DNA from: Escherichia coli
GTDB taxonomy: Bacteria; Pseudomonadota; Gammaproteobacteria; Enterobacterales; Enterobacteriaceae
DNA: 6,055 nt
Assembly: GCF_048403405.1 (NCBI RefSeq)
Contig: NZ_CP183132.1
Direction: 5' to 3' (one strand)
In this document: positions 1,259 through 6,055 of the stretch, piece after piece
Numbering within the stretch: the stretch's first letter is position 1
Layout: every line of letters starts with the position of its first letter
Program-made: the position numbers and the translations under genes
The notes under the pieces: model-generated
What the model was told of the DNA's origin: nothing
The model's input: the letters and a program-made list of their open reading frames with translations, nothing else
The model's database searches: none

Positions 1259-1615
1259 ATGGGGGTAATGATACCGATGAAACGCGAGAGGATGCTCACG
1301 ATACGGGTTACTGATGATGAACATGCCCGGTTACTGGAACGCTGTGAGGGTAAACAACTGGCGGTATGGATGCGGCGGGTCTGCCTGGGTGAGCCGGTTG
1401 CCCGTTCCGGGAAGCTGCCGACACTGGCACCGCCGTTACTGCGTCAGCTGGCCGCCATCGGGAATAACCTTAACCAGACAGCGAGGAAGGTGAACAGCGG
1501 GCAGTGGTCTTCCGGTGACCGGGTTCAGGTGGTGGCCGCACTGATGGCCATCGGGGATGAGCTGCGCCGGCTGCGTCTGGCGGTCAGGGAACAGGGGGCG
1601 CGGGATGATAGTTAA
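1259..1615 (+). CDS. mbeC: MbeC/MobC-like relaxosome accessory protein (ribbon-helix-helix); alternative start ATG 1292 (MLTIRV…)
   Basis: MLTIRVTDDEHARLLERCEGKQLAVWMRRVCL… matches ColE1 MbeC, whose truncated 5' part is also retained in pBR322. ATG 1259 has aaggggggg 8 nt upstream. Stop TAA 1613-1615 overlaps the mbeA start. Confidence 0.8.
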   Translation: MGVMIPMKRERMLTIRVTDDEHARLLERCEGKQLAVWMRRVCLGEPVARSGKLPTLAPPLLRQLAAIGNNLNQTARKVNSGQWSSGDRVQVVAALMAIGDELRRLRLAVREQGARDDS

Positions 1616-3170
1616 GTTTCATGCCAGGGGAAAAGGTGGTGGCAGTGGTCCGGTTGATTACCTGCTGGGAAGGGAGCGTAACCGGGAAGGGGCAACGGTG
1701 CTTCAGGGGAATCCGGAAGAGGTCCGGGAACTCATCGATGCCACGCCATTTGCGAAGAAATACACGTCAGGTGTTCTGTCGTTCGCGGAGAAGGAGCTGC
1801 CGCCTGGAGGGCGTGAAAAAGTGATGGCGAGCTTTGAGCGTGTACTGATGCCCGGTCTCGAGAAAAATCAGTACAGCATCCTGTGGGTGGAGCACCAGGA
1901 CAAGGGACGGCTTGAGCTGAATTTTGTCATTCCGAACATGGAGCTACAGACCGGAAAACGCCTCCAGCCGTACTACGACCGGGCAGACAGGCCGAGAATT
2001 GATGCCTGGCAGACGCTGGTGAATCACCATTACGGTCTGCATGACCCCAACGCCCCGGAGAACCGCCGGACGCTGACCCTTCCTGATAACCTGCCGGAAA
2101 CGAAACAGGCGCTTGCTGAGGGCGTCACACGCGGGATAGACGCGCTTTACCATGCCGGAGAGATAAAAGGCCGTCAGGATGTGATTCAGGCGCTCACAGA
2201 GGCGGGGCTTGAAGTGGTCAGGGTGACGCGAAGCAGTATCAGCATTGCAGACCCGAACGGCGGGAGGAATATCAGACTGAAAGGAGCGTTTTATGAGCAA
2301 TCTTTTACAGACGGGCGCGGAGTTCGAGAAAAAGCTGAAAGAGAGAGCCGAATCTACAGAGAAAATGCTGAACGACGAGTTCAGGAAGCTCGAAGAATCT
2401 GTAAACAGGGAACTGACCTCAAACGAATCTTTAATCAGGAACGCTATCAACGACCATACAACAGCCCTGAAAGAACTGCTGGAGAGGTATCAGAAAACGA
2501 CCGTCGATACGATGGACGCGCACTGGAAAACCGTACTGAAAATGAGCGTGAAACGCTGGCTGTGGCTGATTATCGTCTCAGTACTGATGTTTGCCACGAC
2601 CGGGAGTCTGCTGTGGTACCAGGGCATGAAGATAAACGCGAATATGAATATTCTCCGCGAGCAGAAAGAGAGTCTGGAGAAGCTGAACGCGAAGACATGG
2701 GGCGTGCGTTATCACGAGGACAGCAACGGACGTTTTCTGGTGTTGCCGAAGGGGATGAAAGCCGAAACGAACTGGACGAAGGACAACGGCAAACTGAACG
2801 CAGTGAGACTGGTGCAGGAGTGACAGAGCATGACGGAGCTGGAAAGACATTTGCTGAACGCATTAGAGCAACTGCAACAGGACTATATGCAGCGGCTGAA
2901 CGAATGGGAGAACGCCTTCGTGGAATTGCAGAAAATGTTTTCGCTTACGCAACGGGACAACGCGATGCTGAACGGGCGAGTCATGCAGTTGAGTCAGCAG
3001 GTGCAGCACTTGAGCGAGCGGACAGAACGCTTGAGCCAGTTATACAGCGAGAACAGGAGATAAGGGATGAACGGCTGATGCAGGAACGCGAACATGAGTT
3101 ATCTCTGGAGCGGGAGCGTCAGCCGGAAATCCAGGAGCGGACACTGGATGGCCCTTCGCTGGGATGGTGA
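1605..3170 (+). CDS. mbeA: MbeA relaxase, MOB(HEN) family, 521 aa
   Basis: MIVKFHARGKGGGSGPVDYLLG… is the ColE1 MbeA N-terminus, with catalytic Tyr19 (1659-1661) and the H97-E104-N106 motif (VEHQDKGRLELNF). ATG 1605 is preceded by gggggcgcggg. The E/R-rich low-complexity C-terminal half is typical. The ORF track's 537-aa call (start 1557) is an upstream extension. Confidence 0.9.
   Translation: MIVKFHARGKGGGSGPVDYLLGRERNREGATVLQGNPEEVRELIDATPFAKKYTSGVLSFAEKELPPGGREKVMASFERVLMPGLEKNQYSILWVEHQDKGRLELNFVIPNMELQTGKRLQPYYDRADRPRIDAWQTLVNHHYGLHDPNAPENRRTLTLPDNLPETKQALAEGVTRGIDALYHAGEIKGRQDVIQALTEAGLEVVRVTRSSISIADPNGGRNIRLKGAFYEQSFTDGRGVREKAERESRIYRENAERRVQEARRICKQGTDLKRIFNQERYQRPYNSPERTAGEVSENDRRYDGRALENRTENERETLAVADYRLSTDVCHDRESAVVPGHEDKREYEYSPRAERESGEAEREDMGRALSRGQQRTFSGVAEGDESRNELDEGQRQTERSETGAGVTEHDGAGKTFAERIRATATGLYAAAERMGERLRGIAENVFAYATGQRDAERASHAVESAGAALERADRTLEPVIQREQEIRDERLMQEREHELSLERERQPEIQERTLDGPSLGW
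2293..2823 (+). CDS. mbeB: MbeB mobilisation protein, 176 aa, one TM segment; nested inside mbeA in a different frame
   Basis: MSNLLQTGAEFEKKLKERAE…WLWLIIVSVLMFATTGSLLWY… matches ColE1 MbeB. SD aaggag lies 6 nt upstream of ATG 2293. The gene sits entirely inside mbeA at +1 offset, the known ColE1 arrangement. Confidence 0.85.
   Translation: MSNLLQTGAEFEKKLKERAESTEKMLNDEFRKLEESVNRELTSNESLIRNAINDHTTALKELLERYQKTTVDTMDAHWKTVLKMSVKRWLWLIIVSVLMFATTGSLLWYQGMKINANMNILREQKESLEKLNAKTWGVRYHEDSNGRFLVLPKGMKAETNWTKDNGKLNAVRLVQE
2830..3063 (+). CDS. mbeD: MbeD mobilisation / entry-exclusion-like protein, 77 aa; nested inside mbeA
   Basis: MTELERHLLNALEQLQQDYMQRLNEWENAF… matches ColE1 MbeD. SD aggag lies 9-10 nt upstream. 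The gene starts 7 nt after the mbeB stop, in the same frame as mbeB. Confidence 0.8.
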   Translation: MTELERHLLNALEQLQQDYMQRLNEWENAFVELQKMFSLTQRDNAMLNGRVMQLSQQVQHLSERTERLSQLYSENRR

Positions 3171-3230
3171 AACCATGAAAAATGACGTGTTCAGTGGATT
3201 AAGGCGGGCTAATGTGGCCTGTAGCATCTG

Positions 3231-3248
3231 GTTGCATAGGTATTCATG
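3231..3248. promoter_or_regulatory. ARG box (ArgR binding site) of the cer-like accessory region
   Basis: gtTGCATaggtATTCAtg: 11 of 14 core positions match the TGAAT-W4-ATTCA ArgR consensus. It lies ~105 bp upstream of the XerC arm, the spacing seen in ColE1 cer. Confidence 0.5.
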
Positions 3249-3250
3249 CG

Positions 3251-3375
3251 GTTAAAATTTATCAGGTGCGATCGCGGCAGTTTTTCGGGTGGTTTGTTGC
3301 CATTTTTACCTGTCTGCTGCCGTGATCGCACCGAACGCGTTTTGGCGGTGCGTACAATGCGACGTTATGGTAAAT
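3251..3375. other. cer: cer-like multimer resolution site: accessory sequences plus XerC arm GGTGCGTACAA (3347-3357), 7-bp central region TGCGACG (3358-3364), XerD arm TTATGGTAAAT (3365-3375)
   Basis: Both arms are identical to the ColE1 cer XerC and XerD arms as I recall them. The upstream ~100 bp (…atcaggtgcgatcgcggcagtttttcgggtggtttgttgccatttttacctgtctgctgccgtgatcgcacc…) closely matches the ColE1 cer accessory sequence. It lies between mob and the cargo segment, as cer does in ColE1. Confidence 0.8.
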
Positions 3376-3459
3376 GGAGCGGATTTTCAGGAAGGAGTGA
3401 TACTAACAACTCGAACACTGTGCAAATAATGATTTTTTTAAAATATCGGTAACGATAAT

Positions 3460-3500
3460 AAATTATTTCGTTTTACGCCGGTAATAAATATAATGTAGTT
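3460..3500 (+). promoter_or_regulatory. candidate sigma70 promoter for the cargo operon: perfect -10 TATAAT at 3489-3494, AT-rich UP-like upstream, weak -35
   Basis: ataaaTATAATgtag sits ~50 bp upstream of the ORF A start. No good TTGACA is present at the 17-bp spacing. Alternative -10 tatata at 3505-3510. Confidence 0.35.
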
Positions 3501-3543
3501 TCAGTATATAAAAAAATATATGAGGTGTCTTGTGGGAGCTTTC

Positions 3544-4596
3544 ATGAATCTTCAACAACGTATAAATAAACTACCACAATTATCATCCAGTTTTTCATTT
3601 GGAAAAGATATTGATAATATTCATTCATTTATCTTTAACGAAACTTCTAAAGATAAAATTGAAGATTTACTAAGAAAATGGGTGTCAGGCAATCAGCCCT
3701 GTGTATTTGGTAAATTGGCAAGCAAGAAAATTAAAGGGCTTGATTTCCATTTATCTATTGTAAATAGCCCCCAACTATATAATGATGATGGTCATTTGTT
3801 TGATTTTTTGCGTAATGAAAGAGTTCGTTTTAAAGAACGCGCAAGAAGAGGAGAGGTCAGTGCGCATCTCATTTATTTTATTCATCCACAACTTGCCTTT
3901 GCTCGTCCATCAGAAGAGTTAGTGGACATACAAAAATATATTTGTTCGCTGCATATGCCAGAGTGCTATCCAATAAAAGAGGATGTTATTTATACTGAAA
4001 GCGTACCATTTCAGGATAAAGATGGGCTAAAAATATATAAGGCTGGTGTTAATGTTTTTTACTCTTCTGCTCATAGAACAAGAAATCATGATAGAAGAAT
4101 ACCAGGGGGAATACTTATTTCTGTAAATGCCCCGGGGCATTTTATGAGGCTGGCGATAGAAAAAGGTTTCTATAAAGATCAAGAACAAGCGTTAGCGGAT
4201 ATTCGTAACATGACTATTCAGTCTGTTGGTAAGGGTGGGTATTCACATCCGGAAGGGATTTCTACAACATGGCATTCAGAATCTAATTTGGATCGTTTTG
4301 GATGCCCAGTGCACACCGGTAATAGTTCTTATTACAGCGGTTTTTATCATACTGATGTATTAATTCCAGGAGAATTAACTAAGGATGAAAGATTGCTCCA
4401 TGAAATAGAAAATAGTGATCCAATGATCTTCAACTGGAATGTATTGTTTTATGTTTCATTAGAAGAGTTTCCTATAGATGATCCTTATTATGGAGAGTTT
4501 ATTGGTATTCCTGTAGATGATGCATCTATGTTTTTTAACTCCTTTCAACCAAGGAAATTTGAAAACAAACCCCTTTATGAGAAAGAGGATGATTAA
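3544..4596 (+). CDS. hypothetical cytoplasmic protein, 350 aa; no recognisable family; first gene of the cargo operon
   Basis: A 1.05-kb uninterrupted frame in ~30% GC DNA, where chance ORFs of this length are very unlikely. ATG 3544 has GGGAG (3534-3538) 5 nt upstream. The ORF track's start at 3520 has no SD. No signal peptide or TM segment. Stop TAA 4594-4596 lies 1 nt before the ORF B start. Confidence 0.8.
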   Translation: MNLQQRINKLPQLSSSFSFGKDIDNIHSFIFNETSKDKIEDLLRKWVSGNQPCVFGKLASKKIKGLDFHLSIVNSPQLYNDDGHLFDFLRNERVRFKERARRGEVSAHLIYFIHPQLAFARPSEELVDIQKYICSLHMPECYPIKEDVIYTESVPFQDKDGLKIYKAGVNVFYSSAHRTRNHDRRIPGGILISVNAPGHFMRLAIEKGFYKDQEQALADIRNMTIQSVGKGGYSHPEGISTTWHSESNLDRFGCPVHTGNSSYYSGFYHTDVLIPGELTKDERLLHEIENSDPMIFNWNVLFYVSLEEFPIDDPYYGEFIGIPVDDASMFFNSFQPRKFENKPLYEKEDD

Positions 4597-4597
4597 T

Positions 4598-5464
4598 ATG
4601 ATTAAAGGAATGCTTTTTGCTTTTTTAGCAGCGTTCTCATGGGGGGCAGCTATCGTAATGAGCAAAAAAGGAGTTGAAGAACTAGATGCCGGAGGGGTGT
4701 TTTTCTGGCAGATTTGTAGTGCAGTAATACTATCTTGGATAGTTCTTTTTATAAAAAGAAAAAAACTCCCATTAAACTCAAAAGCGATACTTGCTTATGC
4801 GACAGGCGTTTTTGAACCATTCTTAGCGTATACTTTTACACTCTACGGACTTTATTTTATTTCAGCAGGAAGCGCATCAATTATTTTTTCACTTGAATCA
4901 GTGTTTATATTGGTGTTGTCTGTTCTTATTTGCTCAGTTAAAATTAATTCCCCGCAATATTTTATATTGTTCCTTATAGGTGCAATTGTTGGCAGTATTT
5001 TGGTAGCCTTGCCAGACATCAGTAATGGATCGAATAATATTGTTGGATATTGTCTTGTTGTTGCCGGTGTGTTATCGGCAGCATTTTATGTTGTTATATC
5101 GTCTCGCCTTATTAAATCGTTTGAGCCTATCACATTATTGAGCGGACAGTTGACATTCTCCCTTATACTGTCATCGCTCTTTATTTTTATATCTAAATCA
5201 TCAATTTATCTTCCGTTGGAATCCGTGATTATTGTTTTTTCATCTGGAATATTACAATATTTTTTAGCTTTTTGTTTTTACTTGAACTCCTTGCGTTGGC
5301 TCCCAGTTCATTTGGCAGGGATAATGTTGTACTTTATTCCGCTAGTTGCATTATTTTTGTCATGGTTGTTTTTGGATGAACAATTCACATTCTTACAGGG
5401 GGTAGGATTTATTGTAACTGTGCTAAGTGTATATTTTCTTAACAGAAAATACTCAGAGGAGTAA
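4598..5464 (+). CDS. EamA/DMT-superfamily permease, 288 aa, ~10 TM helices (two EamA repeats)
   Basis: N-terminal LFAFLAAFSWGAAIVMSKK matches the EamA signature (…F.WG..F…K). About 10 hydrophobic spans alternate with short loops (e.g. GGVFFWQICSAVILSWIVLFI, IVGYCLVVAGVLSAAFYVVISS, LPVHLAGIMLYFIPLVALFLSWLFL). ATG 4598 has SD AAGAGGA 8 nt upstream (ATG 4589 is also possible) and is translationally coupled to ORF A. The ORF track's start at 4517 would overlap ORF A by 80 nt and is unlikely. Confidence 0.9.
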   Translation: MIKGMLFAFLAAFSWGAAIVMSKKGVEELDAGGVFFWQICSAVILSWIVLFIKRKKLPLNSKAILAYATGVFEPFLAYTFTLYGLYFISAGSASIIFSLESVFILVLSVLICSVKINSPQYFILFLIGAIVGSILVALPDISNGSNNIVGYCLVVAGVLSAAFYVVISSRLIKSFEPITLLSGQLTFSLILSSLFIFISKSSIYLPLESVIIVFSSGILQYFLAFCFYLNSLRWLPVHLAGIMLYFIPLVALFLSWLFLDEQFTFLQGVGFIVTVLSVYFLNRKYSEE

Positions 5465-5631
5465 CATTCTGTTCAGGATTGCCCCCCGGCCTCCATCGAT
5501 ACCGTGCCAAATGCACGTAAAAAACGGGAGCGTTTCTGGTGTCGGAATGTAACCAAGGGGGTCAGAGGCGCGCTAAAACGCTCTCAGGGGAGTCAAATAG
5601 AGACGTTTGTAACAAAAAGATCAAAGGATCC

Positions 5632-6055
5632 TCTTGAGATCCTTTTTTTCTGCGCGTAATCTGCTGCCTGTAAACGAAAAAACCGCCTTGCAGGGCGGTT
5701 TGATCGAAGGTTAAGTCAGCTTGCAGACTGCTTAACCAGGTAACTGTCTTATGCGAGACGAGTCACCAAAATTGTTCTTCTAGTGTAGCCGCACTCCGGC
5801 AGCCACTTCAAGTACTCTCTAAATATCTCGCACATGACTTTTACCAATGGCTGCTGCCAGTGGCGCTTTGTGGTGTCTTTTCCGGGTTGGACCCAAGAGA
5901 ACAGTTACCGGAGAAGGCGCAGCAGTCGGGCTGAACGGGGGGTTCCTGCATACAGCCCAGCCCGGAGCGAACTGCCTAAGTCGCCCCGAGATACCAGAAG
6001 ACGTGAGCTATGAGAAAGCGCCACGTGTCCCGTAAGGGAGAAAGGCGGAAAAGGT
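5632..6055. repeat. terminal redundancy: exact copy of 1..424 caused by reading past the circular junction; plasmid unit length 5631 bp
   Basis: 5632.. tcttgagatcctttttttctgcgcgtaatc… equals position 1 onward, through …aaggcggaaaaggt = 411..424. The ORF 5847..6035 duplicates 216..404. Confidence 0.95.

Follow-up and report, generated by a model that had tools for sequence, protein, structure and literature searches.

The YqcI/YcgG proteins (PF08892, IPR014988), with AglA (PDB 9ub3), GntA, ChmN, DcsA, AmbT and Mhr24 as members, consist of a single domain of 240-275 amino acids. The class of thiolate-haem guanidine N-oxygenases was defined structurally only in 2025, and the YqcI/YcgG enzymes characterised so far are all biosynthetic. 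For AglA, the topology a1-a2-b1-a3-b2-a4-L1-b3-b4-a5-L2 has been published, in which the loop L2 is mobile and gates the substrate (PMC12866846). Cys44 of AglA ligates the haem iron, and mutation of the equivalent cysteine abolished AglA activity (PMC12866846). The corresponding mutation in ChmN resulted in the loss of the haem spectral features and of the colour. The haem propionates are bound in AglA by Arg166, Lys196 and Arg200. Here, an open reading frame from Escherichia coli, designated ORF A, is compared to these enzymes. It is located on contig NZ_CP183132.1 in a stretch of 6,055 bases, referred to as the window, which represents a circular plasmid of 5,631 bp with an overlap of 424 bases. 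In RefSeq, ORF A is labelled as a "hypothetical protein".

ORF A is proposed to be a soluble enzyme and an unannotated, distant and larger relative of the thiolate-haem N-oxygenases AglA, GntA, ChmN and DcsA, which is coupled to an exporter. It would bind haem and N-hydroxylate a guanidino or amine compound, and the product would be exported by the DMT-family transporter encoded downstream. This reading as a whole is given a probability of about 0.55. More confidence is placed in a narrower claim, the homology of ORF A to the thiolate-haem YqcI/YcgG enzymes, which is considered to be likely. The proposal builds on a conserved gene, a fold of the AglA type, an invariant cysteine motif in register with that of AglA, a natural fusion to a YqcI/YcgG domain, the linkage to an exporter and a recurrent arginine and guanidino context. 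Haem binding and an oxygenase reaction are postulated on this basis, as are the substrate, the direction in which the transporter works and the benefit gained from the two genes.

Gene, fold and cysteine loop of ORF A

The gene and its presumed ribosome binding site are located as follows:

3544-4596, plus strand: ORF A coding sequence, 350 amino acids and stop codon; proposed thiolate-haem N-oxygenase from an unannotated sister family of YqcI/YcgG
3534-3538, plus strand: GGGAG, Shine-Dalgarno-like, 5 nt upstream of the ATG at 3544, as read from the sequence

An earlier description, made from the letters of the DNA alone and called the sequence-only reading below, had delimited the same 350-residue open reading frame, which was confirmed. 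An alternative in-frame ATG at position 3520 would extend the protein to 358 amino acids and has no Shine-Dalgarno-like site. The ATG at 3544 is the likelier start, because it has the GGGAG 5 nt upstream, is used in RefSeq and is the position at which the N-termini of the homologues align. As the sequence-only reading had stated, a transmembrane segment is absent, with a maximum of 0.91 for a 19-residue Kyte-Doolittle window; the N-terminus is not hydrophobic. ORF A is clearly a genuine, conserved gene: when 1.84 billion representative proteins were searched with a profile, 411 sequences from many phyla were identified at E<=1e-3, and the homologues form 96 clusters, nearly all of which are full length. 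In Pfam-A and NCBIfam, no match to ORF A was obtained at E<=1. Searches of the PDB sequences, both with the single sequence and with a 42-sequence profile, gave matches at chance level only (porphobilinogen synthase and Fab chains, E>=0.3). PADLOC-DB contained no match for ORF A, for the DMT protein or for P0124, a protein of the sister subfamily introduced below, and the idea that ORF A is a known anti-phage defence gene was dropped after this empty scan.

An AlphaFold2 model of ORF A, based on an alignment of 42 sequences, has a predicted local distance difference test score (pLDDT) of 87.8 and a predicted template modelling score of 0.90. When the model was compared to the PDB by Foldseek, the top four matches were all AglA, with weak E-values of 8e-3 to 1.6e-2 and a probability of up to 0.90. 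The sandwich fold of AglA, consisting of a four-stranded sheet, three plus two flanking helices and the loops L1 and L2, is present in the model, and the identity to YqcI/YcgG proteins in the structural alignment is only 8-12%. As judged from the model, the secondary-structure elements appear to follow the order of the AglA topology, which is shared by the YqcI/YcgG proteins:

Model: AglA alpha1 corresponds to helix H36-50 of ORF A, the Cys ligand to C53 and alpha2 to helix H54-60
Model: beta1 corresponds to strand E68-73, alpha3 to helix H82-101, beta2 to strand E107-113 and alpha4 to helix H124-137
Model: L1 corresponds to a loop of ORF A, beta3 to the hairpin E151-173 and beta4 to strand E189-195
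Model: alpha5 corresponds to helix H197-227 and L2 to a long loop

The oxygenase domain of nitric oxide synthase (NOS) follows AglA in the Foldseek results, but its matches are at chance level, and membership in the NOS fold was not found. ORF A is not a member of the NOS family; signs of pterin binding, of an R-C-x-G-R context and of a second reaction step to nitric oxide (NO) are absent from it. With the cytochromes P450, ORF A would share a cysteine-ligated haem, the activation of O2 and the use of external electrons of the ferredoxin/flavodoxin type. However, the P450 fold is all-alpha, the FxxGxRxCxG motif is missing from ORF A, and no structural match was obtained.

The cysteine motif that ORF A has in common with the YqcI/YcgG proteins is located in one loop:

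3694-3714, plus strand: codons Q51-P-C53-V-F-G-K57, loop proposed to carry the haem-thiolate ligand, at the N-terminal end of helix 54-60

Residues 51-56 of ORF A (Q-P-C53-V-F-G) match residues 42-47 of AglA (Y-P-C44-Y-F-G), so that P-C-x-F-G is common to both and lies at the same place in the fold. Conservation was analysed in a set of 42 relatives with 29-76% identity and in a set of 93 sequences, which was obtained after addition of a sister subfamily with 20-27% identity. In the larger set, C53 is present in 93/93, P52 in 92/93 and F55 in 91/93 sequences. A local hhalign comparison of the 93-sequence superfamily profile with a profile of 36 YqcI/YcgG sequences, in which the AglA fragment was included and P0241 (see below) was left out, brought the cysteine motifs into register with a score of 36-37 and a P of about 4e-4, at an HHsuite probability of just 34-37%. 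In the controls, column-shuffled profiles scored 14.4±2.2 (maximum 19.5, n=60) and a reversed profile scored 18.9. An HMM (hidden Markov model) built locally for YqcI gave marginal matches (E 0.004-0.16) to 8 family members, all at residues ~45-130; ORF A itself was outside the set searched.

Beyond the cysteine loop, the alignment is of low confidence and suggestive only. In this part, HDRR...SVN195 of ORF A stands opposite the YqcI segment ARRF...VFN, which contains Arg166 and Gln177 of AglA, and the invariant R185, together with R184/H184, stands opposite the arginine-rich loop of AglA and YqcI. In both families, a basic-rich loop between beta3 and beta4 would be followed by a strand ending with Asn or Gln. 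In the low-confidence tail, GCPVH of ORF A is placed opposite WRCPFH of YqcI. When alignment A1 was compared by hhalign to the single C-terminal sequence of P0100, only the W...PC motif was aligned, without significance. A match between alignments A2 and A3 was rejected as spurious, because the genuine YqcI domain of P0100 was contained in A2.

P0100 (622 amino acids; positions 2530-4398 of its locus, L068) is a natural fusion, in which an ORF A-like domain at residues 10-361 is followed by a canonical PF08892 domain at residues 418-619 (E 2.5e-47). A second example is P0241, which has the end part of an ORF A-like domain at its start. Among the other genes of the P0100 locus, one codes for an amidinotransferase that matches StrB1 (E 4e-87) and resembles SxtG and AGAT as well, and one for a pyruvoyl-dependent arginine decarboxylase. 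Also encoded there are a Rieske oxygenase, a MATE exporter, an OprB porin and a MOSC protein. Proteins of the MOSC/mARC type reduce N-hydroxylated compounds, including N-hydroxyguanidines. The locus probably represents a guanidino natural-product pathway without prior characterisation.

Conserved motifs and the C-terminal region

Among the 42 relatives, 39 columns are invariant, and in all 93 sequences W46, C53, D183, R185, N195, Y264 and D271 are invariant. The family of ORF A has four signatures, namely QPC(L/V)FG(R/K) at 51-57, AHRTRNHDRRxPGG at 176-189, SxGxGG at 227-232 and YxxxYHTDVLxP at 264-275. The last three of these are ORF A's own and distinguish it from the YqcI/YcgG proteins; their codons and those of a variable loop are located as follows:

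4069-4110, plus strand: codons A176-HRTRNHDRRIPG-G189, the strongest signature of the family, in the loop that joins the beta3 hairpin to beta4
4222-4239, plus strand: codons S227-V-G-K-G-G232 (SxGxGG), invariant in the subfamily of ORF A and not in the sister subfamily
4276-4317, plus strand: codons of residues 245-258 (SESNLDRFGCPVHT), variable loop with GCPVH, the only segment of the model with pLDDT<50
4345-4368, plus strand: codons Y268-H-T-D-V-L-I-P275, specific for the superfamily of ORF A, in the extra C-terminal ~90 amino acids and absent from canonical YqcI/YcgG proteins

The arginines R184/R185 in the first of these segments are candidate haem-propionate binders, as judged from the alignment. 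With 350 amino acids, ORF A is larger than the single-domain YqcI/YcgG proteins, and residues ~263-350 have no counterpart in the YqcI alignment. The YHTD pattern of this region was one of three peptide patterns by which 57 loci were retrieved, and in the 93 sequences H269 is conserved in 86, T270 in 91 and D271 in all. For the variable loop, the residue after C-P of GCPVH is F, V, L or M across the family. C254-P255 may be the counterpart of the degenerate 'CPF' signature of the YcgG proteins, which are described as 'FPC/CPF motif-containing', an assignment that derives from the low-confidence alignment tail. The loop 245-258 is possibly the counterpart of the mobile loop L2 of AglA.

The sequence-only reading, which was confirmed in part, had described ORF A as a protein with no recognisable motifs and had located a putative active site in a region rich in His, Cys, Tyr and Gly at residues 230-290. 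The former holds for inspection by eye and for the library HMMs, but not in view of the four strong family signatures. A confident match to a known domain family, which the sequence-only reading had named as a refuting observation, was indicated on the level of the fold and of profile-profile comparison, and not with any library HMM. The peptide quoted for the region (GKGGYSHPEG...VLIPGE) was found at residues 229-277, nucleotides 4228-4374. The enrichment exists numerically (0.28 for residues 230-290 against 0.16 overall), but it is within chance: 187/2000 shuffles of the protein contained a window of 61 residues that equalled or exceeded the richest one in ORF A (0.295, from residue 226). 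The attention drawn to the HTD residues was justified by their conservation. It is also very likely that ORF A is an enzyme, as had been suggested, and it belongs neither to the kinases, P-loop or Rossmann proteins nor to the GNAT proteins or methyltransferases. The resemblance of DRFG...HTD to elements of kinases and of aminoglycoside phosphotransferases (APH) had been called superficial; the F-G positions 252-253 are variable, and no protein kinase was matched in the Pfam, PDB-sequence or fold searches of ORF A. A kinase- or APH-like reading was dropped, being without support from fold or motifs.

Transporter partner and genomic neighbourhoods

Directly downstream of ORF A, the window contains the gene for the partner protein:

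4598-5464, plus strand: gene for an EamA/DMT-family transporter, 288 amino acids, multi-spanning (PF00892, E 6.8e-44, two repeats; WP_001335763.1)
4584-4589, plus strand: AGAGGA, Shine-Dalgarno site for the transporter, inside the 3' end of ORF A

The protein has the two EamA repeats and the multiple hydrophobic segments of this family and is named 'DMT family transporter' in RefSeq. The stop codon TAA of ORF A is located at 4594-4596 and the ATG of the transporter gene at 4598, 1 nt later, which places both genes in one operon; this tight junction is conserved, and the two genes are probably translationally coupled. An enzyme combined with an exporter is also the operon logic of other EamA/DMT exporters that are paired with a biosynthetic enzyme. 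EamA/YdeD, YddG and RhtA are amino-acid exporters, and CntI-type proteins export metallophores. The transporter in the window is weakly similar to carboxylate, amino-acid and amine transporters and to YddG, and remains below every NCBIfam equivalog cut-off.

The 57 loci mentioned above were obtained in a scan of genome collections and originate from Proteobacteria, Actinomycetota, Cyanobacteria, Acidobacteria and candidate phyla; the open reading frame of the ORF A homologue was recovered in 53 of the loci analysed. In 43/53 loci an EamA gene is located within <=6 kb, mostly immediately downstream with a 4-nt overlap, and a MarR-family regulator is divergent or adjacent in 24/53. The pairwise identities of ORF A and EamA proteins co-vary (Pearson r = 0.81 for 820 locus pairs), which is consistent with co-inheritance, with shared phylogeny contributing to r. 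For the YqcI/YcgG clusters, such a near-obligate pairing with an EamA exporter has not been described.

In about 10 actinomycete loci, ORF A is followed by genes for a dimethylargininase-like protein, a pyridoxal phosphate-dependent decarboxylase of the Orn/DAP/Arg type, a saccharopine-dehydrogenase-like protein, optionally a MarR regulator, and then an EamA or GNAT protein. The dimethylargininase-like gene, which is also arginine-dihydrolase-like, was identified by NCBIfam (E 6e-71) and by the Pfam model DDAH_eukar. The pair of decarboxylase and dehydrogenase presumably resembles enzymes of the carboxy(nor)spermidine or carboxyaminopropylagmatine type from polyamine metabolism. Instances of this operon are found in L020, L022, L024, L025, L027, L029, L033, L042 and L055, at about 5900-12200 in each locus, and an arginase-family gene sometimes follows. 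An arginase-family neighbour is present in 4 loci. The arginine-handling neighbours agree with the activity of the YqcI/YcgG enzymes, and this recurrent context represents evidence independent of the fold. The combination with an arginase-family gene recalls the pairing of DcsA with DcsB.

The pair of genes was also identified outside of the window. The chromosome of Edwardsiella hoshinae (L012, 5400-8400) contains an ORF A and EamA pair with 63% and 56% identity to the proteins of the window, which forms a two-gene island of ~41-48% GC in a chromosome of 51-62% GC; such a low-GC island indicates that the cassette was transferred horizontally as a whole. A 75%-identical pair of ORF A and DMT genes is present on the 105-kb IncK2/Z conjugative plasmid pSTEC405_1 (L070, CP061218.1).

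Some further neighbourhoods were noted. Fragments of a colicin locus ('colicin transporter' and lysis protein) flank the pair on pSTEC405_1, and a serine acetyltransferase gene lies ~2.5 kb away; these features of L070 were noted at 6989-8915 and 9620-12086. In a locus similar to Algicola sagamiensis (L006), PALP and GNAT genes lie upstream of the ORF A-EamA pair. ORF A homologues were also identified in metagenome-assembled genomes assigned to Saccharibacteria and Peribacteria of the candidate phyla radiation (L031, L045, L021), one of them being directly followed by an arginase-family gene.

The sister subfamily has the motif WWxDHRxPGG and likewise an AglA-like fold, and was identified in 80 metagenomic loci (L073-L152). 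Here, an EamA neighbour was found in 0/80 loci. Recurrent neighbours are instead a 523-residue protein without known identity (27 loci), caspase-like peptidases, ThsB-like TIR proteins, a fusion of a caspase with a HamB-like helicase and CHAT-EAD1 proteins. Examples of these neighbours are located at L092:7178-8746 (minus strand), L101:2849-5962 (plus strand), L087:6453-6839 (plus strand) and L152:7127-8020 (plus strand). The neighbourhood looks like a previously undescribed system of the conflict or defence type, which shows that the superfamily serves more than one biological setting.

Proposed activity and alternative explanations

For the reaction, it is proposed that the helical face and the central beta-sheet would bind the haem between them, with Cys53 of the QPCVFGK loop as the axial ligand, and that the invariant basic residues R184/R185 of the HDRR loop would hold the propionates. 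Electrons would be supplied by host reductases of the ferredoxin/flavodoxin type, since no reductase is encoded nearby. After activation of O2, an N-H group of a guanidino or amine compound, perhaps arginine, agmatine or a close derivative, would be hydroxylated, and the co-transcribed EamA/DMT protein would move the product, or a substrate/product pair, across the inner membrane. From the near-constant pairing with an export pump it follows that the plasmid probably causes its host to modify a small guanidino compound and to secrete it. The two genes on pJJ1886_3, the plasmid to which the window corresponds, would then form a self-contained 'modify and export' cassette in the place where a mobilizable plasmid of the ColE1 type carries its cargo, in contrast to the large natural-product clusters in which the YqcI/YcgG genes are found.

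Several observations weigh against this proposal. The PF08892 family HMM (gathering score 27 bits) gave no match to ORF A at E<=1; in combination with the similarity in profile and fold, this would make ORF A a superfamily-level homologue of YqcI/YcgG outside PF08892 as currently defined. The HHsuite probability of the hhalign signal is low, and a separate hhalign comparison of alignments A1 and A3 gave no match. ORF A is ~100 amino acids longer than AglA, and the invariant polar residues H182, D183, H269, D271, E140 and D147 are without a described counterpart in YqcI/YcgG, so that the chemistry may differ. A redox partner is encoded neither on the plasmid nor recurrently near the homologues. 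The arginine-related neighbours are mostly actinomycete and metagenomic and do not belong to the enterobacterial two-gene cassette. In the sister subfamily, the neighbours are TIR, caspase, CHAT and helicase proteins and not enzymes of arginine metabolism, which lowers the confidence in guanidine N-oxygenation as a universal activity.

Part of these findings can be accommodated by other explanations. A protein of the same biochemical class might serve in resistance or detoxification, in which case ORF A would inactivate an exogenous toxic guanidino or amine compound by N-oxygenation (a natural antimetabolite, an antibiotic or a feed or biocide compound) and the DMT protein would expel it, with induction of the chromosomal pairs by way of a MarR-type sensor. 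MarR regulators classically control genes for efflux and detoxification, and the frequent MarR neighbour fits such a role, as does the distribution of a mobile cassette over low-GC islands and ColE1 and IncK2/Z plasmids of human, poultry and swine isolates, a pattern of a selectable trait. However, no known resistance family was matched in the Pfam and NCBIfam scans, a candidate toxin is lacking, and both the actinomycete operon with its decarboxylase and saccharopine-dehydrogenase-like protein and the characterised YqcI/YcgG enzymes point to biosynthesis; this role is possible, but on balance unlikely. Somewhat more doubtful is the explanation that ORF A shares merely the scaffold of AglA and is no haem oxygenase. 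Cys53 would then be a nucleophile or a metal ligand, and H177/H182/D183 with H269/D271 would form another active site, for example that of a hydrolase or transferase that depends on a metal and has guanidino or polyamine compounds as its substrates. The many invariant polar residues, the extra C-terminal region of ~90 amino acids with YHTD and the failure of PF08892 to match would be explained in this way, and the fusion to a canonical YqcI domain is more sensible if the two domains do different jobs. The invariant cysteine in register with the haem ligand of AglA is the observation that speaks for the haem enzyme.

Two further explanations are given little weight. A haem-binding protein without catalytic function, by which the DMT transporter would be gated or loaded, for example in the role of a sensor, chaperone or regulator, would be in line with the tight one-to-one pairing with EamA, the apparent co-inheritance and the lack of a nearby redox partner, but ~40 invariant residues across the fold and the biosynthetic-looking operons fit an enzyme better, and the characterised relatives are all enzymes, so that this function is very improbable. 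An active site at residues 230-290 with a Cys/His dyad in G-C254-P-V-H257, as put forward in the sequence-only reading, can hardly be maintained. C254 is present in 30/42 and 66/93 sequences (71%) and P255 in 35/42 and 78/93 (84%), a moderate conservation, and the conserved SxGxGG and YHTD motifs are nearby. However, H257 is present in only 7/42 (17%), 12/42 close relatives have Arg, Val or Leu instead of C254, the segment is the poorly modelled one, and the compositional enrichment is within chance; the dyad fails conservation mapping. Not GCPVH but the invariant C53 in the N-terminal third, aligned with Cys44 of AglA, would matter most.

For the proposed exporter-coupled N-oxygenase, a speculative extension is that the cargo is a minimal two-gene factory, by which E. 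coli or Salmonella would secrete an N-hydroxylated guanidino compound (for example N-hydroxy-arginine or N-hydroxy-agmatine). The compound could act as a weapon or signal, in the manner of a small-molecule equivalent to the colicins that usually take up this slot of the plasmid, or it could modulate the arginase/NO metabolism of the host; this extension is regarded as improbable. If it were true, the whole superfamily might supply N-oxygenated toxic or signalling molecules to systems of biological conflict, a role undescribed for YqcI/YcgG-type haem enzymes. A function of the cargo as colicin, immunity or lysis protein was dropped, as no similarity was found; the analogy concerns the cargo position in a ColE1-type plasmid only.

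With regard to novelty, ORF A is best assigned to a family that is sister to the YqcI/YcgG haem N-oxygenases and so far unannotated, and that is set apart by its signature motifs, an extended C-terminus and an exporter dedicated to it. The class of thiolate-haem guanidine N-oxygenases would be extended to a sister family undetected by library HMMs, and to two recurrent new contexts, the dedicated EamA exporter and the TIR/caspase/CHAT loci of the sister branch. If the product is an N-hydroxyguanidine, an effect on microbial competition or on the arginine and NO metabolism of the host is possible, and the hydroxylation of N-H groups would gain new biocatalysts in these enzymes. For a "cryptic" plasmid, a concrete hypothesis on the biochemistry of its sole two cargo genes would also help to explain its persistence.

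The plasmid and its cargo block

The window has the sequence of plasmid pJJ1886_3 from JJ1886, an E. coli strain of ST131, and many plasmids from E. coli and Salmonella are likewise identical to it. Its bases 1-300 are repeated exactly at 5632-5931, and the complete overlap (1-424 = 5632-6055) results in the recurrence of the open reading frames of 203-404 at 5834-6035. Likewise, RNAI is present twice on the minus strand, at 43-143 and 5674-5774. The plasmid consists of a ColE1-like backbone with ~56% GC and a cargo block:

3400-5480, no strand assigned: cargo block of low GC (~0.35 against 0.56 for the backbone), with ORF A and the DMT gene as its only genes
Backbone: MobC-family protein and MbeA relaxase, identified by library HMM matches and RefSeq
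Backbone: Rop gene, and the nested genes mbeB and mbeD

In its behaviour, the cargo block is a horizontally moving two-gene cassette. The ORF A gene was identified in 118/5,426 complete E. coli genomes (~2%), where it is always plasmid-borne and almost always has >=99% identity. Carriers of pJJ1886_3-type plasmids include the reference strain of the pandemic ST131 lineage and Salmonella from food animals. In the literature that names this plasmid, the cargo is given no function, and small plasmids of the ColE1 type are commonly considered to be cryptic. Searches of the literature for the plasmid name, the protein accession and the combination of hydroxyarginine with EamA revealed no report on the function of ORF A or the cargo, and no paper discussing the ORF A protein was found in the library searched.

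In the region 3150-5800 of the window, 9 sigma-70-like sites were found, compared to 8.7±2.6 expected; a promoter candidate at 3403-3430 is not taken as evidence, because the number of sites is close to the expected one. In the same region, 6 terminator-like hairpins were identified, compared to 1.7±1.4 expected. Several of these are located inside coding regions (4570-4588 on the minus strand, 4687-4710 and 5059-5083), and one lies in the ori/RNAI region (5623-5701).

The mbeA relaxase gene (1557-3170, plus strand) contains two out-of-frame nested open reading frames at 2293-2823 and 2830-3063, both on the plus strand. These match MbeB_N (E 1e-18) and MbeD_MobD (E 4e-34), respectively, and are additional to the five features annotated for pJJ1886_3 in RefSeq.

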